This document shows positions 37,423 through 62,791 of a stretch of DNA of 64,000 bases, piece after piece. Source of the DNA: Promethearchaeota archaeon Loki_b32 (GTDB taxonomy: Archaea > Asgardarchaeota > Lokiarchaeia > Sigyniarchaeales > SOKP01). The DNA is taken from the NCBI GenBank assembly GCA_005223125.1, contig NJBH01000002.1, forward strand, positions 160,001 through 224,000. Reading direction: 5' to 3'. The position numbers and the translations under genes are program-made. Under the pieces are notes generated by a model. It did not search any database and was not told the DNA's origin. It was given only the letters and a program-made list of their open reading frames with translations. Positions within the stretch are counted from its first letter, which is position 1; every line of letters starts with the position of its first letter.

Positions 37423-37840
37423 TTGTAATCACGATTTATGTTTTAGATTTAGATTTAGTTTGTTAATGATATATATATAGTTTTTATTTGGTTTTAAATA
37501 TTTGAATAATTGAATGGAATTTAAATACTAAAATTTTCTAGTCTGATGGTTAATGGGAATTTTTGTATTATATTAAGGAAAACAGACATTAACACTGGTT
37601 AAATTTTTTTGAACTTGTATTATAAAATGCAGAGAGTTTATACTATACTAATGATAAGGCCACTAGAATCTAGTCCAATGTAAATAAGTTGAATATATAA
37701 AAGTACCATTTTTTTAGAAAAAAGGATAAAAGATCGTTTCTAACTAAAATCGCTAATATTTTAGAGAAACGCTATTTTTAAAGAAAGAAAAATATCGTTA
37801 ATTAAATTAATAATAATAATAAATTATTTGAGTGATATAT

Positions 37841-39031
37841 ATGAGCTTTAAAATAAAAAGTAATGTTTATTGGGTCGGTAAAGTAGATTGGGAACTCAGA
37901 AAATTCCATGGAAACGAATATTCCACGAATCGTGGTTCTACTTACAATTCCTACTTAATTAAGGAAGAAAAAATTGTACTAATTGATACTGTTTGGAAGC
38001 CCTTTTCGAAAGAATTTGTTGAGAATCTATCTAAAGAAATTGATTTAAGTAAAATTGATTATGTTATTACAAATCACGCAGAGAGTGATCATAGTGGAGC
38101 ACTTCCGGAACTCATGAAAAAGATACCAGAGACGCCAATATATTGTACTGCAAATGGCGTAAAGTCAATAAAGGGACATTATCATAAAGATTGGAATTTT
38201 CAAGTAGTAAAAACGGGGGATACGTTAGATCTAGGAAATGGTAAACAATTAATCTTTGTAGAAATGAGGATGCTTCATTGGCCTGATAGTATGGCATGTT
38301 ATTTGACCAAAGACAATATACTATTCAGCAATGATGCTTTCGGTCAACATTACGCTAATGAATTTATGTATAACGATCTTGTTGATCAAAATGAACTTTA
38401 TGCAGAGTGCATAAAATATTATGCTAATATTCTCACACCTTTCAGTGCGTTTGTTGATAAAAAAATAAAAGAGGTTTTAGATCTTAAAATCCCTATTGAT
38501 ATTATTGCAACAAGTCATGGAGTTATTTGGAGAGACAATCCAACTCAAATCGTAGAAAAATATTTAACTTGGGCTAACGATTACCAAGAAAACCAAATTA
38601 CAATATTATACGATACAATGTGGGATGGAACAAAAAGAATGGCCGAAGCAATTACAAAAGGAATTCGTGAAATTGATAAGAAAGTTAATGTTAAATTGTA
38701 TAACATAGCCAAAACCGATAAAAACGACTTAATTACAGAGATCTTTAAATCTAGGATAATTCTTGTAGGATCACCTACTATTGGTGGAGGAATTCTATCT
38801 AGTGTTGCCGAAATTTTGGAGATGATTAAAGGAATGCGTTTTAAAAACAAGAAAGCGGCGTCATTCGGCTGTTATGGATGGAGTGGAGAATCAATAAAGG
38901 TTATAAAGGAACATTTAGAAAAGAGCGGTTTTTCTGTAATTAACGACGGTATACGCGCTTTGTGGAACCCTGATGATGAAAGTTTGGAAAAATGCGTAGA
39001 ATTCGGCAGAGAAATAGCTAATACTAAATAA
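37841..39031 (+). CDS. fprA: flavodiiron protein (FprA/NorV type: MBL + flavodoxin domains)
   Basis: 'GSTYNSYL', 'NHAESDHSG', 'HWPDSM', 'DAFGQH', 'SHG', 'YDTMWDGT', 'FGCYGWSGE'. Confidence 0.95.
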   Translation: MSFKIKSNVYWVGKVDWELRKFHGNEYSTNRGSTYNSYLIKEEKIVLIDTVWKPFSKEFVENLSKEIDLSKIDYVITNHAESDHSGALPELMKKIPETPIYCTANGVKSIKGHYHKDWNFQVVKTGDTLDLGNGKQLIFVEMRMLHWPDSMACYLTKDNILFSNDAFGQHYANEFMYNDLVDQNELYAECIKYYANILTPFSAFVDKKIKEVLDLKIPIDIIATSHGVIWRDNPTQIVEKYLTWANDYQENQITILYDTMWDGTKRMAEAITKGIREIDKKVNVKLYNIAKTDKNDLITEIFKSRIILVGSPTIGGGILSSVAEILEMIKGMRFKNKKAASFGCYGWSGESIKVIKEHLEKSGFSVINDGIRALWNPDDESLEKCVEFGREIANTK

Positions 39032-39109
39032 TTAAATTTTTTTAATATATTTTTTATTTCAAAATGTTAATATCAATAAGTAAGTCATGAAAAAATAAAA
39101 CCAAAAATA
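38958..39109 (+). repeat. 152-bp direct repeat, left copy (fprA 3' end and downstream sequence)
   Basis: Matches 41102-41253 with one mismatch (gagaaatagct / gagatatagct). Confidence 0.95.
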
Positions 39110-41101: not shown

Positions 41102-41253
41102 CTTTGTGGAACCCTGATGATGAAAGTTTGGAAAAATGCGTAGAATTCGGCAGAGATATAGCTAATACTAAATAATTAAATTTTTTTAATATATTTTTTA
41201 TTTCAAAATGTTAATATCAATAAGTAAGTCATGAAAAAATAAAACCAAAAATA
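41102..41253 (+). repeat. 152-bp direct repeat, right copy
   Basis: Copy of 38958-39109. Preceded by aattaacga (41093-41101), which matches 38938-38946 with an 11-bp deletion. Confidence 0.95.
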
Positions 41254-53457: not shown

Positions 53458-54087
53458 TTATTTAAAATATTCCATTATAAAGTCAAATAGTATGTCTGGA
53501 TAATTTGTGTAAATTGCTTTTACTCGTTGATTATGATAGTTTAATTCTATAACTTTCTTCATACCCATTTTTGTATTAACTCCCCAAACGTAACAATTAA
53601 AGCCATTATCGATTATTATTTTAAATAAATCTTCAATATTTCTTGAAAATTTTAAGTTTATTATTTTGACATCTAATTCCTTTAATTTTTTAAAATTTTG
53701 AGTTTCATTTTTGATTATATTAATATTTCCTGTTAAAGTGTATATAAACTTAACTTTCTTGTTTTCATTCCTTAGTTGAGACAAAACTTTTAATCTACTG
53801 TCTGTAATTTCTATTTTATTTAGGAGAGAGAATTCTTTTGCGGTAATTAAAAGTTTCACGCCTACTTCTTTATTTGCAATATCAAAGCTAAACCTTACCT
53901 CATTTGAGCTATTCCTAAATGCTTGAAAGACCTCGTCAACCAACGGAATTTTTCTTCCATCTTTAAACTTGATTTTCTCAATCTCTTCGAAAGTTAATCT
54001 TCTTACAGAGATATATTTCTCGCCTATTTTGAATCCTCCATCGTGAAAACAAATTAACTTTTTGTCTTTAGTTGCTCGAATATCTGT
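53458..54087 (-). pseudogene. glycerophosphodiester phosphodiesterase, 5'-truncated half
   Basis: Frame reads TDIRATKDKKLICFHD...IPLVDEVF...FDI...YVWGVN...IYTNYPD; the HRG-containing N-terminus is 7.6 kb away at 61563-61840. Confidence 0.88.
53912..54087 (+). repeat. 176-bp direct repeat, left copy (GDPD internal segment)
   Basis: Aligns without gaps to 61563-61738; 12 mismatches by my count, only one of them in the first ~87 bp. Confidence 0.95.
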
Positions 54088-54090
54088 GTA

Positions 54091-54336
54091 TTGAAGAAAT
54101 ATTTTAAAAATCTAATTGATTTTTCTCAACTCGATAAAAAAACAATTCTCTATATTATAATCTTTATTACTTTAGTTGTATTTTCCGTTTTCTTGCTTTA
54201 TTATAATTATTTTGTTGATAGAACGTTTATCTATGTAATTGTTGCAAATTGGTTTGTAAATCCGATTTATGAATTACAAATCATTGGAATATTTCTTTTT
54301 ATAGGAATCATGACAATTCAAGTTCTATTCAAGTGA
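54091..54336 (+). pseudogene. internal fragment of a diverged TVP38/DedA gene
   Basis: 54091-54322 is collinear with 62006-62237 (about 45/77 identical aa by my count); lacks the N-terminus and C-terminal domain. Confidence 0.85.
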
Positions 54337-54399
54337 GAGGTTGGTGTTTTGGATCGGTTCTATAATGCTATTTTAATTTATTTGTCCTTATTATTATTC

Positions 54400-54891
54400 T
54401 CAAGGATTAAGATGTCCAAAACTGAGGATTAAGAAAATAATGAAAGGAATCATACTAAGAACTGTTATAGTTTGAGTTATTCTTAATAAACAAAAATATC
54501 TCTTCTGATAAATTAATAAATTATTATATTGCTGTTTATCATCTTCAATTAATTTTTTATCATCAAGATCAAATCTAAACTTCTTTGATTTTCTTGTAAT
54601 ATTTTCCCGATAATGCCAATTGGTTCTTTTTATTTGTTCTGTTTTTTTTGAAAATGCCCCGATACTTATAATTAAATTAAAAATGACTAAAATCATCAAA
54701 ATGATTATGCCTAATCCGATTAAAGATTGACCTTCTCTATTCAGAAAAGTAGCAAAATAAGAAACTGCCACACTGATAAACCCAGAAAATATTAAATGAA
54801 ATTCTAAATATTTTAATCTTGTTTCTTCATATACACGAGTAATTTTGTGCCCATATTCTATGAAATTTTTAAGTCTTTCTTCCTCTTCCAT
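54400..54891 (-). CDS. three-TM protein resembling Pycsar-type (DUF5706-like) membrane effectors
   Basis: Two TM segments, soluble loop, then 'QQYNNLL.YQKRYF.LL' followed by a terminal TM segment. Confidence 0.5.
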   Translation of the reverse strand: MEEEERLKNFIEYGHKITRVYEETRLKYLEFHLIFSGFISVAVSYFATFLNREGQSLIGLGIIILMILVIFNLIISIGAFSKKTEQIKRTNWHYRENITRKSKKFRFDLDDKKLIEDDKQQYNNLLIYQKRYFCLLRITQTITVLSMIPFIIFLILSFGHLNP

Positions 54892-55342
54892 AAAGCTAGT
54901 TAGTTTGTTGATTTAAAAAGACTAATTATTAATATTTAGATAAAAATATATTGAAGAAGAATAAATACTAAAAATCATAGAGAATTTATCGAGCCCAGAG
55001 AACATGGTTTCTAAAATAAGAGGAAATATATATGAGAGTATTTTTATCGATACCCAAAAATACCCGTTTTCAATAAATATAGCTTTTTTGATATGAAGAG
55101 ACCATTTTAGCAAGATTGGAAAAAGACTCAATTATTTTTATCGATTGGAGCACTCTTTCTGCTATTAATAGAATCCACTTAAGATTTTTTTGTTTTCATG
55201 ATAATTGAATTTTAATTTTTGTGATATTTCATTCGCTCTATGGATGATTACTAGAGGATGGAGGAGGGAGGTTATAGAATCCCCACACTAAGAAAGAAGA
55301 TAAGATAATTCAAAATAACAAATAATTCTTTTTTAGGGAGTA

Positions 55343-56401
55343 TTAAAGATTCAATAAAATGTTTAATATTGATTGAAAGTCTGTATAAACATTTTTAATC
55401 GATTTTTTATCTAAAGGACTTCTTTCTTTTACCAATTTTGAAATATGAATGTAATTTCTATAATCCTTTAAGACACTTTGAATTCTTTTCCAAGTTGCTC
55501 TGTGTTGTTGATTATAAATATCATTGGAACTTAATTGTGGATTCTGAAGAACTATTCTTAATTTTTCACTGAAATTTTCAATTAAATTCCCCTTCTTAAA
55601 AAACTCTTGTAGGTTATTAACTTCTACATAGTAATCAATGCAATATTCAATGATTGCCCCCATATTGATTGCGACATCAACCCAACGGTTTTGAATAATC
55701 CAAGAACTTAAATCATCATACAATTGTATAACACGATTTCTTCCGTCTTTATTTTCAATCTTATGAAATTTCTCAAAGAAAAAAACTTCAGTCAAAAACT
55801 TATAACCGTTTCCATTTAAGCAAAATGAGTTTGGATTATGGAAAGATAAACTTTTATTACCTAAACCAATTCCATTTATCCCCATAATATGTTTGTTGAC
55901 AAAATCAGATGTAAAGTATAACTTACTCCATTTTAAATTGTCTAATTCATAATTATAGTCATTTTTTATTATATCATTTATATCGGAAAATGGAATTTCC
56001 ACTTTCATGACTCTTGTATTACTACTATCAACAATGTATTTACTTAAATCATACTTAGAATTACCTAAGTCTCTTAAAAATCTTAGTAATTTGGATACTA
56101 AAAGAGTATACTCCCTCTTTTCACTAGGAATAATATAGGTTTTCTCATAATAAACGAGTCCTTCTCCAGTTATCTGTAAAAATGGAGGATTTCCAAAAAC
56201 CACATCTTTCCCCTCAAGAAAATTATCTTGACATAATAATTCTATAGCTATATTAAAATTTGAATTATCCTGAATATTAATAAAGACGTTATCCACATCA
56301 ATGTTATTTATCCTATTAGGCGGTTTGTTAATAAATCCCTTGTAAAGTGTTTCTAATATGAGTTTTTGATAAAATTCAACAGTATCATTTATATGCTCCA
56401 T
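55343..56401 (-). CDS. winged-helix-like N-terminus plus C-terminal HEPN-like domain
   Basis: 'LQITGEGLVYYE' and 'LNGNGYKFL' wing motifs; 'MGAIIE' and 'LKDYRNYIH'. Confidence 0.65.
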   Translation of the reverse strand: MEHINDTVEFYQKLILETLYKGFINKPPNRINNIDVDNVFINIQDNSNFNIAIELLCQDNFLEGKDVVFGNPPFLQITGEGLVYYEKTYIIPSEKREYTLLVSKLLRFLRDLGNSKYDLSKYIVDSSNTRVMKVEIPFSDINDIIKNDYNYELDNLKWSKLYFTSDFVNKHIMGINGIGLGNKSLSFHNPNSFCLNGNGYKFLTEVFFFEKFHKIENKDGRNRVIQLYDDLSSWIIQNRWVDVAINMGAIIEYCIDYYVEVNNLQEFFKKGNLIENFSEKLRIVLQNPQLSSNDIYNQQHRATWKRIQSVLKDYRNYIHISKLVKERSPLDKKSIKNVYTDFQSILNILLNL

Positions 56402-56430
56402 ATTTACTATTATAGTCTTTAAATAATGAC

Positions 56431-56491
56431 TCTTTATTTTTACAATAATGTGTATGTTATTATAAACTGCATTATTAATAAGCGAATAGAG
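56431..56491 (-). promoter_or_regulatory. 61-bp conserved upstream element, copy 1
   Basis: 53/61 identical to 61145-61205; lies 5' of the minus-strand gene starting at 56401; contains TATA-like TTTATAAT on the minus strand. Confidence 0.65.
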
Positions 56492-56576
56492 ATTAGTGGT
56501 TTGTTATTTATAAAGTTGGTTGGAGCAAAAATAGGATTGACAAAAATATAAAAGAATAATAATAATTTTATTATTT

Positions 56577-56843
56577 ATGGGTAAAAAAAATAAAAAGACA
56601 AAAGAAAATATCTCAAATCTCCCCTCTAAAGATGGAAACTATAATCTCTTTAATAGAAAAGAAGAGATTGTCTATACTGGGCAAGGAAATATAAAGGATA
56701 GAATCTCTGCTCATTCTAATGATCCAGATATGCCATTCACATCATATTCATACAATCTTGAACCTTCTGCTAGAAAACGGAATGAGATTGAAGAAAAGAG
56801 AATAAAACGTTATAAACCGCCTCTGAATAAACAAAAAAAATGA
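56577..56843 (+). CDS. stand-alone GIY-YIG nuclease domain protein
   Basis: 'LP...GNY.L......IVYTGQG.NIKDRI..H', 'E...I..YKPPLN'. Confidence 0.8.
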   Translation: MGKKNKKTKENISNLPSKDGNYNLFNRKEEIVYTGQGNIKDRISAHSNDPDMPFTSYSYNLEPSARKRNEIEEKRIKRYKPPLNKQKK

Positions 56844-56965
56844 TTTTAATAGATCTTAGTGTAAGAAAATAAAAATTCCCTATACCATTTCGCTCTCTAT
56901 TTATTTAAATATTTAAATTCTTTTTTATTTACTATAATGTTAACATTTTTTGGGTGAATTGAACA

Positions 56966-57874
56966 ATGCCAAATGCAAAATTTCTTGAGGAATATCAACT
57001 TTATAGAAAATTTGATTTTCCGATAAAAAGAGATACAAAGCTTTTACCTATTAGCCTTAATGAATTTCCAAAAGTTAATTTAAATATGTATTGCCCAAAT
57101 TGTAATAACATCCGAACTTTTAAATTTAATTATAAATACATTCATAAAAAAGAAAAAAATTTATTTATTAAAAACATAGATAATCATTTTCAGATAAAGT
57201 TCGACTTTTCAAAGACACAAAGACCTTCTTTTCCAGTTTTAGAAGAAAATGATATTGTTAATCTAAATTATATTTGTGCATCTTGTGAAGATTACTATCG
57301 GTTTTTTGCTATAAAAATGGGGAAGGGATTGAAAACTATTGAAAAAGTTGGACAATTCCCAGCATGGGATATAAGTATTGAAAAGAATCTAAAAAAGATA
57401 TTAAAGGGCTATTCTGAATATTATAAAAAAGGTAAAACCTGTGAATCTCAAAGTTATGGAATAGGTGCTTTTGCTTATTATAGGAGAATTATCGAAGATA
57501 TTATCGGAGAATTATTAGAATTAATTCCAGATTTAATGAATGGGGAAGAATTAGAGAAATATCGAGTAGCATTAGAGGAAGTAAGAAAAACTAATAATAC
57601 TACAAATAAAATCGCACTTGTAAAGGATTTATTACCGCCGATATTAAAACCAGAACAGTTTAATCCTTTAAAAACGATACACGATGTTTTGAGTACTGGT
57701 ATACACGGAAAAACAGATGAACAATGTTTAGAAGATGCAGAATCAATTAGAACATCATTAATATTTCTTGTAGATGCTATTTTGAGTCGAAAGAAGGGGC
57801 AACAAGAATATACGGAAAGCATGAAGAAAATTCTAGAGAAGCGAAGGAAGAAAATAAATAAAAATGAAAACTAA
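56966..57874 (+). CDS. zinc-ribbon + DUF4145/HEPN-like protein
   Basis: CPNC and CASC; 'KVGQFP', 'GIGAFAYYRRIIE', 'LSTGIH'; GGTGA SD. Confidence 0.7.
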   Translation: MPNAKFLEEYQLYRKFDFPIKRDTKLLPISLNEFPKVNLNMYCPNCNNIRTFKFNYKYIHKKEKNLFIKNIDNHFQIKFDFSKTQRPSFPVLEENDIVNLNYICASCEDYYRFFAIKMGKGLKTIEKVGQFPAWDISIEKNLKKILKGYSEYYKKGKTCESQSYGIGAFAYYRRIIEDIIGELLELIPDLMNGEELEKYRVALEEVRKTNNTTNKIALVKDLLPPILKPEQFNPLKTIHDVLSTGIHGKTDEQCLEDAESIRTSLIFLVDAILSRKKGQQEYTESMKKILEKRRKKINKNEN

Positions 57875-57996
57875 AAATATAATATAATAGTTGAAAAGGC
57901 GAAATCGAAAAGAAAAGATTAAGAACTTATGGATAAAGATGAATTTGAAAAGAAAAAATTCAGATAAAATAAAAAATCACACATGAAATAATAATA

Positions 57997-59079
57997 ATGA
58001 AAGAAATAATTCATTACGACAAGCGAAATGCTCTTAATTTACTGAATAGGCTTCTTAGAATATATCCTTTCTCGATTCAAACAACTGAAAGAAGTTATAA
58101 TTCTTATCGTTATCATTCTGAAAATCCTAATAATATGGCAAACTATTTCTGGTTTGATCATATTTTCAATGAATTAGATAAAAATGGATTTAATATAGGA
58201 TTAGCTCCTCATACACAATATGATATTGAAATTTACAATAAATTAATGGAAAGTATTATAATAAGAATAAAAATTTCTTTAAATAACATAAATAAAAAAC
58301 CGAAAGAAGAAGGTTATATTCTGAATTATGATTTCATATTTTTAAGAGTTCTTTTCAAATGTCTTTATGATTATCTTCATAATCTAAGAACATGGTTGAG
58401 AAATGAATATTTTGGGAAAACATACATACATATTCCATTTATTTATATTGCCATAAACGACTTTTCTGATGATTTTATTGAAAATAACCTCTCGACTCAA
58501 GAAGAATACTGTGAACTAGTAAACAGAATTTTAAGCTATTTTGGTTTCGATTTTATCTCTTTGGGGGCGGATGGAATTCTAAGATATTTTGGAACAACAC
58601 CTGAAGCGGAAGAAAAGAAAAAAGCGATTGCTTTATTACATAAAAAGCAATTCAAAAATGTTATTGAATATTTAGATACTTTTTATGATCATATTTATAA
58701 GAGAGATTATAATAATGCTCTAGCAGAAAGCAGAAATGTCTTAGAAAGTTTCTATAAAACATTGTTATTAAAACATAATATAACCGAAATTGAGAAACGG
58801 GGGAAATCTATAGGAACTGAAGATGGGGAGGTTAATCCCCTCGCAGAAACCATTAGAAAAAATGTTGATTCTATCTTTGAATTTCCAGAATATAGTAAAA
58901 ATATGGATAAGTCTGTGAAATCATTAATAGAATCGAGCAAAACTTTTATAAGTGGAATGGCAAATCCTGCAGGTTCACACGGTCAAGTGAAAAAGCCCAA
59001 AGTTAAATTTAAAGAAGTAAAAGCGGTAGAAAGTTTTTTAACATTATTATTTAATTGCTTATTACCATTTGAGAGATAA
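57997..59079 (+). CDS. protein with C-terminal Abi_C/HEPN-like domain
   Basis: 'DYNNALAESRNVLESFYK' and 'N..GSHG'. Confidence 0.6.
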   Translation: MKEIIHYDKRNALNLLNRLLRIYPFSIQTTERSYNSYRYHSENPNNMANYFWFDHIFNELDKNGFNIGLAPHTQYDIEIYNKLMESIIIRIKISLNNINKKPKEEGYILNYDFIFLRVLFKCLYDYLHNLRTWLRNEYFGKTYIHIPFIYIAINDFSDDFIENNLSTQEEYCELVNRILSYFGFDFISLGADGILRYFGTTPEAEEKKKAIALLHKKQFKNVIEYLDTFYDHIYKRDYNNALAESRNVLESFYKTLLLKHNITEIEKRGKSIGTEDGEVNPLAETIRKNVDSIFEFPEYSKNMDKSVKSLIESSKTFISGMANPAGSHGQVKKPKVKFKEVKAVESFLTLLFNCLLPFER

Positions 59080-59174
59080 TTCTGTTAATTTTTAAAAAGA
59101 ATATAAAAAAAAACTCCAATAAAAATTACATGTTCTTAGAATTGAAAGAAGTTCTTAAAAGAACATTTTAATTT

Positions 59175-59915
59175 CTATTTAAAGTTTCTAATAATCCTAT
59201 TAAAAACGCCTTTGGTTGAAATATACCAATCATAATCAATTTCTTCTTCTTTAATTTCTTTGGAAATATGGATATAATTACGAAATTGTCTCAAGTTATT
59301 TTGAATTAAATACCAACTATTTTTTTGCCCCAAGATATCATATTTAATTGCTGATTGAATATAATTACAGAAATGTTTCTTACCTGCTGGAATAATACTT
59401 CCATCTGGAGAGGTGTATGGTTCAGGTTCAATATTATTTTTGTTACAATATCTAACTAATAAGAATTCAATTATAGAGCCCATTGCAATCATACAATATT
59501 TATAATCGTAAATTTTTTTGAATATATATAAAGATTTTAAATTACTCTTCAAAATTTTTTTTTCATTCTCATTTTCAAAAAGATTCATACTAGATAAATT
59601 TTCAATAATTTCTTTTATACTTGAATCTTTACGAACAATTTTCCTATTGTTATCTTTATTCAATATTTTAAAGACAATTATGGGTATTAAGGAAAATATA
59701 AATATAGTGATTAAAATTAAAACAAATTCACTGGCAACATAAATATTAAATATTGGTGTAAAAAAGATTGATGACAAAAGGAAACTAAAAATAAATAGAA
59801 TACTAAATAAAAAAAGTAGTGTAGAAATTATAAATATGGGCAAAACATAATTATATTGATATAATCCTTTTAACAATTCTTTAAAAGATTTTTTCTTATC
59901 ATTCAATTCTATCAT
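59175..59915 (-). CDS. two-TM protein with C-terminal HEPN-like domain
   Basis: Two N-terminal hydrophobic helices; 'MGSIIE' and 'LRQFRNYIHISK'. Confidence 0.68.
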   Translation of the reverse strand: MIELNDKKKSFKELLKGLYQYNYVLPIFIISTLLFLFSILFIFSFLLSSIFFTPIFNIYVASEFVLILITIFIFSLIPIIVFKILNKDNNRKIVRKDSSIKEIIENLSSMNLFENENEKKILKSNLKSLYIFKKIYDYKYCMIAMGSIIEFLLVRYCNKNNIEPEPYTSPDGSIIPAGKKHFCNYIQSAIKYDILGQKNSWYLIQNNLRQFRNYIHISKEIKEEEIDYDWYISTKGVFNRIIRNFK

Positions 59916-59935
59916 TTTTTTATTGAACCTTTAAT

Positions 59936-60298
59936 TCAAACTCTCAATCCGCCTAAATGTTTTGTTCTAATATAAAGCCCACGTCTTGAACTATCTTTTT
60001 CATTACTTACGTGCCACAGACCATCATAATCAACTCTATATTCTGCAAAACAATTTTGACATTTCACATCAACATAATTTATTTTATCATGAAATAATAT
60101 AGCCCCCCCACATTCAGTACAAATTATCTTCTCTTTTAATAAAAGTAATCTATAACTTTCAATATGTTTTAAAATCCCGATGTTAATCATTCTATTAATT
60201 ACATCTAGAGTTGAATCTTTTGACCTACTCATATCAAAAACTTCAAATGAGGCTCTGGAAGGTTTATAGAATTGGATTTTTGGATCAAAATATCTCAT
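59936..60298 (-). CDS. zinc-ribbon protein
   Basis: CTECGG and CQNC. Confidence 0.6.
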   Translation of the reverse strand: MRYFDPKIQFYKPSRASFEVFDMSRSKDSTLDVINRMINIGILKHIESYRLLLLKEKIICTECGGAILFHDKINYVDVKCQNCFAEYRVDYDGLWHVSNEKDSSRRGLYIRTKHLGGLRV

Positions 60299-60319
60299 AA
60301 GTTCTATTGAATCTACAAT

Positions 60320-60607
60320 TTATATTTCTTTCTCTATCAATATCGTTTTAAATGTATTCGTCATCTGATCAACTTTTTTATTGTATTTATTAATCTCTAG
60401 CCAAAAACCGCCTTTCTCATAAACTTTTTTTAATATTTTTTCAAGTCCATTATAGAGAATTAAAACTCCTAATGTTGATAGAATTGTATATAAGATAATG
60501 ATTGGATTAAATGATTCTGTTAGGATGCTAAACATCCAAGCAAAAAAACCAGATAAGAAACCGCTAATTGTCCATTTAATTATATCATTTTTTTCTATGT
60601 TTGCCAT
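60320..60607 (-). CDS. small two-TM protein
   Basis: Two hydrophobic helices; AGG-type SD upstream. Confidence 0.6.
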   Translation of the reverse strand: MANIEKNDIIKWTISGFLSGFFAWMFSILTESFNPIIILYTILSTLGVLILYNGLEKILKKVYEKGGFWLEINKYNKKVDQMTNTFKTILIEKEI

Positions 60608-60692
60608 TTAAACCTTTCCTATGGTTATTTTTCTATTTATATAATCATTTCAAACGGGATTTAGTAAAAAAAATTTATATATCTCTAAATGT

Positions 60693-61124
60693 CTAAGAAG
60701 AAAAACCAAGTACTATAGCCAGAATAGATAAAATCAAAGAAACTCCTGAAATCACCATGGCAATAATGCCTAAAACTAAATTGAGTTTATGTTCTTTTAA
60801 TTCTTGCATTATAGAGAGATATATAGTTATATTCTTTAATAGATGATCTTTATTATTATGTACTGATTCTCTCCATTTTATATTTTGAGGTTTATAATCT
60901 GCTGTATCTGTTTCCTTCTTTTGGATATATTTTATTAATTTCATAAGATCTCTGTAACCCTTTCTTAATTCTCCCAGTTCACTAGGATAATCTGCTAGTA
61001 ACTCATAGAGACTTCTAGAGATTTCTAAATAAGCATCCGCTAATGTATGGAGATCTATTTTCTCCAATTCTAGGTATTTTTTTAAATTATCTGAAGGTTT
61101 AACAATTTCTAATTCTAAAGTCAT
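60693..61124 (-). CDS. helical protein with C-terminal TM anchor
   Basis: Ends 'LVLGIIAMVISGVSLILSILAIVLGFSS'. Confidence 0.65.
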   Translation of the reverse strand: MTLELEIVKPSDNLKKYLELEKIDLHTLADAYLEISRSLYELLADYPSELGELRKGYRDLMKLIKYIQKKETDTADYKPQNIKWRESVHNNKDHLLKNITIYLSIMQELKEHKLNLVLGIIAMVISGVSLILSILAIVLGFSS

Positions 61125-61144
61125 ATTGTTCTTTTAATTATAGT

Positions 61145-61205
61145 TCTTTATTTTTACAATTATGTTTATATGATTAAAAATCCCATTATTAATAAGCGAA
61201 TAGAG
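61145..61205 (-). promoter_or_regulatory. 61-bp conserved upstream element, copy 2
   Basis: Copy of 56431-56491; lies 5' of the gene starting at 61124. Confidence 0.65.
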
Positions 61206-61331
61206 GCTATTACAAAACTAATTTAAAATGCGGTTGTCGTAATAATAGGCTTGAAATATACGAGCTTTTTAAGTTCGAAAATAATAAAAAAAGTAAAAAT
61301 AAAGAATTTGATTCTAAAAGGAGTAGTGATT

Positions 61332-61562
61332 TTAATCTTTCTTCTCTTCTTTTAAACCACTCTTTTCATAAGCTTTCTTTATTGCATCTTTTACTTTAGT
61401 CATTATTTGTGGACTTGTAGCTATTTATTGCATAATCGGAGAAACATCTAAGGGAGACATTTGTGCTTGTTTTGCTTTTATTACACTTTCTACTGTAATC
61501 TTCTTTTCTTCTAAACCTAATTTCTTTTCTTCTAAATCTAATCTTCTTTTTTCAAATTCTTG
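61332..61562 (-). pseudogene. 3' remnant of a coiled-coil gene cut at the island junction
   Basis: QEFEKRRLDLEEKKLGLEEKKITVESVIKAKQAQMSPLDVSPIMQ*IATSPQIMTKVKDAIKKAYEKSGLKEEKKD*; internal TAA at 61425-61427. Confidence 0.55.
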
Positions 61563-61840
61563 TTCCTAAATGCTTGAAAGACCTCGTCAACCAACGGAAT
61601 TTTTCTTCCATCTTTAGACTTGATTTTCTCAATCTCTTCGAAAGTTAATTTACTTATAGAGCTATATTTCTCACCTATTTTGAAATATCTATCATGAAAA
61701 CAAATTAACTTTTTATCTTTAGTTGCTCGAATATCTGTTTCAATTCCTGCTCCCATACTTATTGCTTTTTTAAAAGAAGGAATCGTATTCTCAATTTCAT
61801 ACCCCGAAGCTCCTCGATGAGCAAAAATATAAGGTTTCAT
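61538..61840 (-). pseudogene. glycerophosphodiester phosphodiesterase, 3'-truncated half
   Basis: 'IFAHRGASG...ENTI.SF..A', 'IETDIR.TKD...ICFHD'; runs into island sequence after 'QAFRN'. Confidence 0.9.
61563..61738 (+). repeat. 176-bp direct repeat, right copy
   Basis: Copy of 53912-54087. Confidence 0.95.
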
Positions 61841-61948
61841 TTTTTATAAAAAAAGCCTAGTTTTTGATTGAATAAGCTGAAAAAAATACTTTTTATTTAA
61901 ATCTAAATTACTAATATTACTTAATGTTTACTCAAGATTTTGATTAAT

Positions 61949-62791
61949 ATGACACAAGACAATGGAAGTAGCCAAACAGATGATAACCAAAATTTTTCAA
62001 CAAAATTGAAAAAATACTTTAAGAATTTATTTGATTTTTCTAATTACGATGTTAAAACTATTGTATACGTTATTTTATTTATAGTCTTAATTATAATATC
62101 CTTAGTTTTATTATATTTTATATTTTTTATAGATAATACAATATTGTACCGATTTGTAGTAGAATTTTTTGTAAATCCGGTCTACAACTTAGAATTTGTT
62201 GGTATCTTTTTATTTATAGCAATTATGGGAATTCAAGGGCTTCTTGTACCTCTGCCCTCAGAGTTAGTCTTATTAGCAACCGGAATGATTTGGGGTTGGT
62301 TTTTAGGGGGAATAATGGGAATTATTGGTTCAATGGCTGCAGCTGCGTTATGTTATTATGTAAGTAGACGTGGTGGACGCCCTTTGGCTGAAAAATTTGT
62401 TGGTGAAAAAGCTATTAATATTGCTGATGATTTCATTAGAAAGCATGGTATGATGGCAATTATTATCACACGGTTTATTCCATTTATTCCTTTTGATGTA
62501 ATATCCTACACTTCAGGATTGGTTGATATTGATGTGAAAAAATATTTAATAGGAACTTTGATTGGGTCTATCTTCAGAGCATTTTTTTATGCAACATTAG
62601 GATGGTTATTGTTTATGAGATATGATCTTCCACTCCCCCTAGACTTTGATCTTTTACCTTTAAATGTAATTATTGAGCAATCTAATTATTTCAATACTAT
62701 ATTAATAATAATTTTAGCAGGTCTAGGTCTAATGATAATCTTGTATTACCTGCTAATAAGAAAATTAGAAAAAAAAAAGGAATCTAATTAA
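61949..62791 (+). CDS. TVP38/TMEM64 (DedA/VTT) family membrane protein
   Basis: 'PLPSELV', 'YYVSRRGGRP', 'RFIPFIPFDVISY.SGL'. Confidence 0.92.
   Translation: MTQDNGSSQTDDNQNFSTKLKKYFKNLFDFSNYDVKTIVYVILFIVLIIISLVLLYFIFFIDNTILYRFVVEFFVNPVYNLEFVGIFLFIAIMGIQGLLVPLPSELVLLATGMIWGWFLGGIMGIIGSMAAAALCYYVSRRGGRPLAEKFVGEKAINIADDFIRKHGMMAIIITRFIPFIPFDVISYTSGLVDIDVKKYLIGTLIGSIFRAFFYATLGWLLFMRYDLPLPLDFDLLPLNVIIEQSNYFNTILIIILAGLGLMIILYYLLIRKLEKKKESN

Follow-up and report, generated by a model that had tools for sequence, protein, structure and literature searches.

How can a block of foreign genes come to lie inside a protein-coding gene of an archaeal chromosome if the block itself encodes no recombinase? 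The question is raised by a 64,000-nucleotide stretch of the Promethearchaeota archaeon Loki_b32, hereafter called the window (G000:C21:160001-224000; G000 stands for the genome, which comprises 4.13 Mb in 71 contigs with a GC content of about 29%). In this window a 7240-bp cargo (54323-61562) with nine open reading frames (ORFs) of at least 88 aa and one small ORF is inserted into a GDPD gene, next to a gene of the VTT/TVP38 family. An earlier note on this DNA had interpreted the arrangement as the product of a circle that entered by one homologous crossover and was targeted by captured fragments of host genes. Our comparison with related genomes and metagenome loci suggests that the island was gained by a single-crossover integration (pop-in) of DNA from a congener, which would have used the general homologous recombination machinery and no site-specific recombinase. 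We assign this explanation a probability of roughly 0.55.

The most conspicuous feature of the island is a 176-nt direct repeat, which was found by repeat search and pairwise alignment. Its left copy (R_L, 53912-54087, minus strand) and its right copy (R_R, 61563-61738, minus strand) are 93% identical with a start-to-start spacing of 7651, and no third copy is present in the genome. The 12 mismatches are located at offsets 55, 88, 90, 95, 100, 111, 123-125, 128, 132 and 153, which places 11 of them within offsets 88-153 and leaves identical runs of 54 nt (offsets 1-54) and 32 nt (56-87) as well as an identical end (154-176). Both copies are internal to the GDPD gene, for which the Pfam search reports two parts of the same domain (PF03009): an N part at 61538-61840 (minus strand, E 5e-19) and a C part at 53458-53943 (minus strand, E 9e-5). 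In detail, the C-terminal codons 94-243 (53458-53911, minus strand) are continuous with R_L and show about 87% identity to the sister species, which is the baseline divergence of the region, and the N-terminal 34 codons (61739-61840, minus strand) form together with R_R the truncated 100-aa ORF 61538-61840. Excision of 53912-61562 results in a single open GDPD frame of 243 aa no matter which repeat copy is retained, in agreement with what the earlier note had read from the sequence.

The left repeat is followed by a 3-nt filler (GTA, 54088-54090) at an illegitimate joint and by a 232-nt fragment from the 5' part of a TVP38/VTT gene (54091-54322, plus strand, codons 23 to approximately 100), hereafter called the stub. 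It aligns to positions 62006-62237 of the resident VTT/TVP38 gene with 67.8% identity at the nucleotide and 58% at the amino acid level, the latter value being the one that had been given before. The resident gene itself is intact (61940-62791, plus strand, 283 aa; PF09335, E 6.5e-27) and is separated from the GDPD start by a divergent intergenic region (61841-61939). Taken as a whole, the left copy (53912-54322, 411 bp) corresponds to the 675-bp unit 61563-62237 minus the 267 bp from 61739 to 62005, and these missing 267 bp take in the first 34 codons of GDPD, the promoter region between the two divergent genes and the first 22 codons of TVP38. What has been duplicated should rather be taken as the complete 675 bp, with the 5' ends and the shared promoter of the divergent GDPD/TVP38 pair, and not just as the 176-nt repeat.

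To place the island in its genomic context, the locus was compared among congeners, in which the gene order MBL, PAP2, GDPD (minus strand), TVP38 (plus strand) and d86 was found across 20 genomes, with PAP2 or GDPD absent in some of them; an intact GDPD directly adjoins TVP38 in 9 of these first 20 genomes compared. The two closest species, G116 and G117, have 87-89% nucleotide identity to the Loki_b32 genome over the flanks, and both contain the empty site: MBL, PAP2, an intact GDPD, TVP38 and d86, with the repeat present once and the usual distance between GDPD and TVP38. The insertion is therefore specific to the G000 lineage. A host segment that is single in the sister species and directly duplicated on both sides of the insert is what a pop-in leaves behind. 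The earlier note had raised the prospect of different cargo at the same site in related genomes. This was not borne out: neither the congener genomes nor the metagenome loci compared carry any of the cargo genes in their versions of the GDPD/TVP38 locus, no other cargo was seen among these relatives at exactly this GDPD position, and only the wider MBL-TVP38 interval varies.

The variants of this wider interval include genes for inositol-phospholipid synthesis, PmbA/TldD or TBP and are free of mobile-element genes. In L017, L020 and L087, PAP2 and GDPD are replaced by a four-gene set consisting of a myo-inositol-1-phosphate synthase, a CDP-alcohol phosphatidyltransferase, an NTP transferase and a xylose-isomerase-like TIM barrel protein, and G001 additionally has a TBP gene. 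The intervals of G001, G004, G007 and L087 were considered as sister islands and rejected, as they hold inositol-phospholipid, PmbA/TldD and TBP genes and neither mobile nor defence genes. The MBL-TVP38 locus rather appears to be a spot of variation in lipid head groups.

The origin of the stub was resolved by a maximum likelihood tree of the 232-nt segment with 44 sequences. The resident TVP38 gene groups with G116 and G117 (support 99/98), whereas the stub is placed on a short terminal branch (0.052) in a separate clade together with L066, G060, G093, G007, L059, L075 and G098. Its closest alleles are those of the metagenome loci L059, L075 and L066 (85% nucleotide identity) and of G060 (83%), compared to 68% for the host gene. 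The stub is a foreign allele from another clade of the genus, and the foreign origin claimed for it beforehand is upheld by this tree. A simple tandem duplication followed by an insertion was rejected as well, because the stub is of another clade and identity amounts to 68% between the TVP38 copies compared to 93% between the GDPD copies.

The two GDPD repeat copies, in contrast to the TVP38 copies, are both members of the GDPD lineage that includes G116, G117 and L059. They differ at one position only within offsets 1-87, a private G of R_R at offset 55, and R_L resembles here R_R and G116. Within offsets 88-153, R_L has the haplotype of G117 (63 of 66 positions) and R_R that of G116 and L059 (likewise 63 of 66; 97% over the full 176 nt in the case of R_R). 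According to these matches the repeat copies are most readily read as a recombination mosaic of two haplotypes which are both present in sister species, and a chimeric haplotype of the repeats is what is expected from a homologous exchange. In addition, the metagenome contig L059 combines a GDPD that is 97% identical to R_R and the N part (the N part alone: 97% to L059, 95% to G116) with a TVP38 of the stub's clade. As this combination exists in nature, the left end of the island corresponds to a compacted version of a real foreign-type GDPD-TVP38 locus without 61739-62005, which confirms the earlier description of this end.

The divergence along the locus is also uneven. Compared with G116, the flanking genes MBL, PAP2 and TVP38 differ by about 11-12%, and the repeat plus the GDPD N part by 2-5%. 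Between the Loki_b32 genome and L059, 54 of 421 positions are mismatched left of 53879 and 8 of 311 from 53879 through R_R and the N part (p 0.0005 by permutation in a maximum chi-square test). Beyond the GDPD start (61840) to the right, the divergence from G116 and L059 leaps to about 25%. Apart from the island, the PAP2-GDPD block seems to move independently between lineages (L059 = Ga0114921_10163232, L047 = G116, L053 = G117): L059 and G116 are 94-98% identical in GDPD and 67-74% in their TVP38 genes, and G116 and G117, with a 95% baseline, differ by 15% in one 66-nt GDPD patch.

The island had been described as lacking integrase, transposase and tRNA genes, and all searches for such genes were blank. 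The ORFs of the cargo include no integrase, transposase, relaxase or replication protein according to Pfam (normal and relaxed thresholds), PHROGs and PADLOC, Atlas likewise shows no integrase, partition and transfer genes are missing from the island, and neither tRNA genes nor Rfam families were detected at 53-63 kb. Genome-wide there are three matches to the tyrosine-recombinase family PF00589, the nearest of them weak and about 100 kb away, and none to the resolvase family PF00239. The cargo also does not resemble a transposon: the repeat search found no inverted repeat pairing its ends, and the flank duplication, being 176-675 bp of diverged sequence, is unlike a short target-site duplication. 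Two candidates for a hidden mobility function were discarded. For c5, one of the cargo proteins, a SAM-like integrase domain is matched only at a sub-threshold E-value of 0.057, and Atlas sides with Abi_C/AbiJ-like proteins (0.95). A homing-endonuclease route by the GIY-YIG-like protein c3 was dismissed because homing is a double-sided gene conversion that leaves no flank duplication.

Integrase-borne elements in protein-coding genes, such as e14 in icd or the dusA islands, supply a replacement for the gene end that they displace. An element of this type could have an att core in offsets 1-54 or 56-87 of the repeat and bring a replacement GDPD 5' end, with the integrase being lost or provided in trans. 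The direct repeat of a part of the target gene, one copy of which is diverged and element-borne, is indeed common to both situations, and a repeat with identical runs of 54 and 32 nt on one side and a diverged arm next to them would fit such a core. However, homology flanks any candidate core on both sides and extends into a second gene. The supposed replacement carries 232 nt of this second gene and leaves GDPD unrestored, and an integrase is absent from the island in every one of the searches described above. Furthermore, a genome with just three tyrosine-recombinase matches and no resolvase would have to account for about 36 similar scars (see below). The Asgard mobile elements described so far integrate by integrases at 11-bp att or tRNA sites, and neither homologous recombination nor direct repeats of gene fragments are mentioned in these papers (PMC11529989, PMC8813620). 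Taken together, we consider a site-specific element at this locus very improbable.

In a Campbell-type integration, a non-replicating circle recombines once with the chromosome, which results in a direct duplication with chimeric copies, requires no site-specific recombinase and can be reversed by a later pop-out. If the homology is internal to a gene, two truncated copies are formed, and homology to a gene end yields one intact copy and a stub. The island shares with this type of integration the insert between direct duplications and the lack of a recombinase, and its two copies would fit the chimeric pattern. It is unlike the known case in that the event would be natural and between species, with 93-97% (GDPD) and 68% (TVP38) homology and a circle that is reconstructed from the arrangement, and in that the duplicated unit spans the starts of two divergent genes and has undergone a secondary deletion.

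We consider the following course of events the most probable one. The donor would be a different species within the Promethearchaeia genus of the host, in whose DNA the cargo was located beside a homologue of the GDPD/TVP38 5' region, and the incoming homologous stretch would reach from GDPD codon 93 over codon 1 and the shared promoter to approximately codon 100 of TVP38. The circle, for which an imported fragment that has been re-circularised is the simplest source, would then recombine once with the resident locus in a natural pop-in, leaving the cargo between two direct 675-bp copies, each of them a chimera of resident and foreign sequence. Before or after entry, a 267-bp deletion in the left copy would have removed the GDPD start, the promoter and codons 1-22 of the TVP38 fragment, and the end state would be the present one, in which GDPD appears split, 176 nt are repeated and the TVP38 stub has no promoter. 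One crossover with a circle bearing the 675 bp explains at once why the segment is duplicated, why the stubs are in native order and orientation and why the haplotypes are chimeric, and a recombinase is not needed. The joint between the stub and the cargo would be illegitimate because fragment ends were ligated during re-circularisation, as we propose. The event could have taken place in the G000 lineage itself, or in a close relative from which a double crossover in the flanking GDPD sequence later brought in the whole structure. Whether the entry itself split the GDPD gene depends on the incoming homology: if it was the contiguous 675 bp, both host genes would have survived the entry unharmed, and GDPD would have been inactivated by the deletion at a later time.

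Which of the copies is resident can be read in three ways. The first reading takes offsets 88-176 of R_L plus the stub as incoming with a crossover in offsets 56-87. According to the second, R_R, the N part and the stub came in from an L059-like donor with a crossover close to where GDPD starts; in this case the entry would have left both host genes intact, and the later 267-bp deletion would have taken the resident GDPD start. The third reading assumes that the structure was formed in a lineage of the GDPD pool of G116, G117 and L059 and then entered through a double crossover, bringing short GDPD flanks along. We lean to the second or third reading because the combination found in L059 is realised in nature and no sampled genome joins a G117-type patch with a stub-type TVP38.

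Several observations weigh against an entry by pop-in. The effective homology is short, with repeat and N part together amounting to 278 bp at 93-97% identity, and the TVP38 part, with 68%, is too diverged for an exchange. All three novel joints (R/GTA/stub, stub/cargo and cargo/R) are illegitimate, which means that some non-homologous joining is needed in any model. Assignment of the copies is ambiguous, as either one could be resident and the crossover could lie in offsets 56-87 or near 61840, and the left copy alone (C part plus R_L) has no significant divergence break. Moreover, both R_L and R_R are nearer to the pool of G116, G117 and L059 than the 88% baseline, so that a model in which everything happened in situ requires more than one exchange. 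Among 54 genomes of the genus and the metagenome contigs, no donor with a stub allele above 85% nucleotide identity was found, neither the R-GTA-stub joint nor the cargo-R joint occurs in any genome or contig searched, and exact look-ups of four island proteins returned no independent contig with identical proteins.

A serious rival is a linear fragment that entered by homology-facilitated illegitimate recombination. One of its ends would have been anchored in GDPD and the other joined upstream of the anchor, thereby duplicating a host segment without any circle. Such an event is in line with the three novel joints, which lack homology (no clear microhomology was seen at them) and of which one contains the 3-nt filler, and with repeat mismatches that are concentrated in one half, as is expected if one copy is wholly resident. 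On the other hand, the cases described by de Vries and Wackernagel in 2002 reportedly tend to delete recipient DNA and not to duplicate it, which weighs against a linear entry, and why the stub and the GDPD piece stand in their native order and direction is not explained by this mechanism itself. It has been proposed for stacked remnants of gene ends in bacteria, where sequential displacement has built up arrays of effector-immunity modules of the type VI secretion system of V. cholerae and where the C-terminal parts of rhs genes are displaced (PMC5361080). The Loki_b32 island resembles these arrays in having foreign cargo beside a conserved anchor, scars in the form of diverged anchor-gene fragments and no integrase; they differ in that the bacterial arrays are built on the 3' ends of polymorphic toxin genes, whereas here the 5' region of two housekeeping-type lipid/membrane genes of an archaeon is involved. 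Linear entry and pop-in are indistinguishable by sequence alone, and we regard the former as unlikely, albeit as a serious rival.

An assembly artefact would dispense with an insertion altogether. In this case, an intact chromosome and a free circle composed of R, GTA, the stub and the cargo would have been merged through the shared repeat, and a metagenome-assembled genome in 71 contigs with an estimated contamination of 4.6% and near-identical offsets 1-87 of the repeat give some room for such an error. But a graph confusion of two collinear loci cannot create three novel joints, and a molecule bearing them must exist. Furthermore, offset 55 and 11 additional sites tell the copies apart, a false path needs two switches within 32 nt (offsets 56-87), which is less than the final k-mers usually applied in assemblies in general, and the GC content of the island equals that of its flanks. 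An artefact seems to us highly improbable.

It could also be assumed that the island is a dedicated mobile element without an integrase, which excises as a circle between its host-derived repeats and re-inserts into new hosts via captured homology tags. Such a cycle would leave behind a layout like the one observed, the lineage from which the tags derive is not that of the host, and G124 has a degraded inverted pair of GDPD and TVP38 fragments by a foreign gene at a neighbouring intergenic site. This locus (L116, G124:C41:1-5000) contains an intact TVP38, a foreign ORF of 311 aa, an inverted and frameshifted second TVP38 copy, an N-terminal GDPD fragment and then d86, and judged by this arrangement the pair probably represents another degraded copy of the GDPD/TVP38 pair that travelled with cargo in a congener. 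Nevertheless, no second island or joint was detected in 54 genomes of the genus, 80 genomes of the family (searched for c5 only), 31 metagenome loci and viral contigs. The cargo modules c2 and c4-c5 occur singly in other contexts, genes for replication, partition or transfer are missing, and the tags are damaged by the 267-bp deletion. This makes a dedicated mobile island quite improbable. Entry by homologous recombination as put forward in the earlier note is thus partly supported, in that the island is recombinase-free, the stub is foreign, the site is empty in the sister species and the repeats are chimeric in haplotype; the idea of captured tags as a dedicated targeting device is not supported, since the modules are found singly elsewhere, a second island is missing and the roughly 36 scars argue for a general habit. 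A broader version, in which Promethearchaeia host a class of recombinase-free islands that form circles from flanking host-derived repeats and re-insert via gene-fragment "address tags", is in our opinion rather improbable. If true, defence genes would spread on host RadA-type machinery alone, and the scars would be the footprints of this traffic.

The composition of the cargo is best described as a probable mosaic of small defence-like modules, with HEPN/Abi-like, membrane and zinc-ribbon proteins, and not as a self-mobile element; this description is based on feature and domain searches. c1 (54400-54891, minus strand) encodes a membrane protein of 163 aa with weak 8xMP and PycTM-like matches below the cut-offs. 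c2 (55343-56401, minus strand, 352 aa) has a C-terminal 87-aa domain in common with c6 (the two match at E 2e-7), and Atlas leads point to a DUF4145/Ymh-type, HEPN-like protein. The small c3 (56577-56843, plus strand, 88 aa) has a weak GIY-YIG-like match (E 1e-3) below the cut-off. c4 (302 aa) and c5 (360 aa) are located at 56966-59079 on the plus strand, with c4 matching phrog_25239 (E 1.6e-38) and c5 being scored by Atlas as Abi_C/AbiJ-type (0.95). The remaining four, c6 (246 aa), c7 (120 aa), c8 (95 aa) and c9 (143 aa), are encoded at 59175-61124 on the minus strand; c6 combines a transmembrane segment with the C-terminal domain known from c2, c7 is a zinc ribbon protein, c8 has a transmembrane segment and c9 a C-terminal one. 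The HEPN/Abi-like character of c2, c5 and c6 is to be taken as leads only, which are derived from Atlas features and the shared C-terminal domain. None of the described defence systems is matched by the cargo; PADLOC reports a weak PycTM-like match for c1 (E 3e-3) and nothing else.

Homologues of c2 stand alone in G022, G129 and G117 (68-77% nucleotide identity), and the c4-c5 pair is also a two-gene module in G107 (79.5% over 2196 bp). Paralogues within the Loki_b32 genome were found for c4 on contig C26 and for c9 at C21:145150-145515, and no relatives of c4 or c5 were found in viral contigs. In a genome of another genus of the same family (L035, G095:C140:206-1274), a c5 homologue with 38-49% amino acid identity contains four stop codons and looks like a pseudogene. 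A 76-nt direct repeat with 83% identity (56416-56491 and 61130-61205) is positioned immediately upstream of the starts of the minus-strand genes c2 and c9 and has no other copy in the genome; the two genes may have a promoter or leader in common here, or the repeat may be an internal scar of a stepwise build-up of the island. At the right end of the cargo, a 45-codon open frame with a terminal stop (61428-61562, minus strand) abuts the right repeat in CT-rich, low-complexity DNA, and a search of the Loki_b32 genome and of five loci from congeners found no protein homologue for it. A third gene scar in the final 95 nt of the cargo was considered and dropped because of the weak matches to several congeners, none at the protein level, and the low-complexity CT-rich sequence.

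Additional evidence for a general recombination habit comes from a self-comparison of the genome, which was restricted to short repeats of 60-300 bp with at least 80% identity and a distance of 0.7-20 kb. This analysis revealed 69 direct and 2 inverted pairs. About 36 of the 69 direct pairs look like a long ORF and a short fragment of it, mostly gene 3' ends, with the restriction that this count is rough and that tandem paralogues add to the excess of direct pairs. These scars point to a general recombination habit of the genome. The GDPD/TVP38 island differs from the other scars, as here the 5' ends of a divergent gene pair are duplicated and a secondary deletion has occurred. Another scar is present in the window, where 38958-39109 recurs with 99% identity at 41102-41253 around a 2.1-kb insert that encodes a multi-pass membrane protein of 332 aa; the repeated segment consists of the last 74 nt of a 399-aa MBL/flavodoxin-type gene (37832-39031) and 78 nt downstream of it.

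With additive flexible genomic islands, which are exchanged by means of homologous flanks, the locus has in common an islet that varies between strains or species at a conserved syntenic spot, an empty site in relatives and tracts of low divergence adjoining the island. The differences are that such islands normally lack a flank duplication and that no other cargo was seen at this position in relatives. The GDPD/TVP38 island represents a well-resolved case of gene gain without an element-encoded recombinase, as it combines a site that is empty in the sister species, a foreign stub and two haplotypes which are both known from relatives. For the annotation of these metagenome-assembled genomes this implies that seemingly split genes and short gene fragments can be recombination scars and are not necessarily assembly errors or decaying paralogues. 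Taken together with the many similar scars in the same genome, this locus suggests that plain homologous recombination with congener DNA, together with some illegitimate recombination, is a routine way by which these archaea gain accessory and defence genes.

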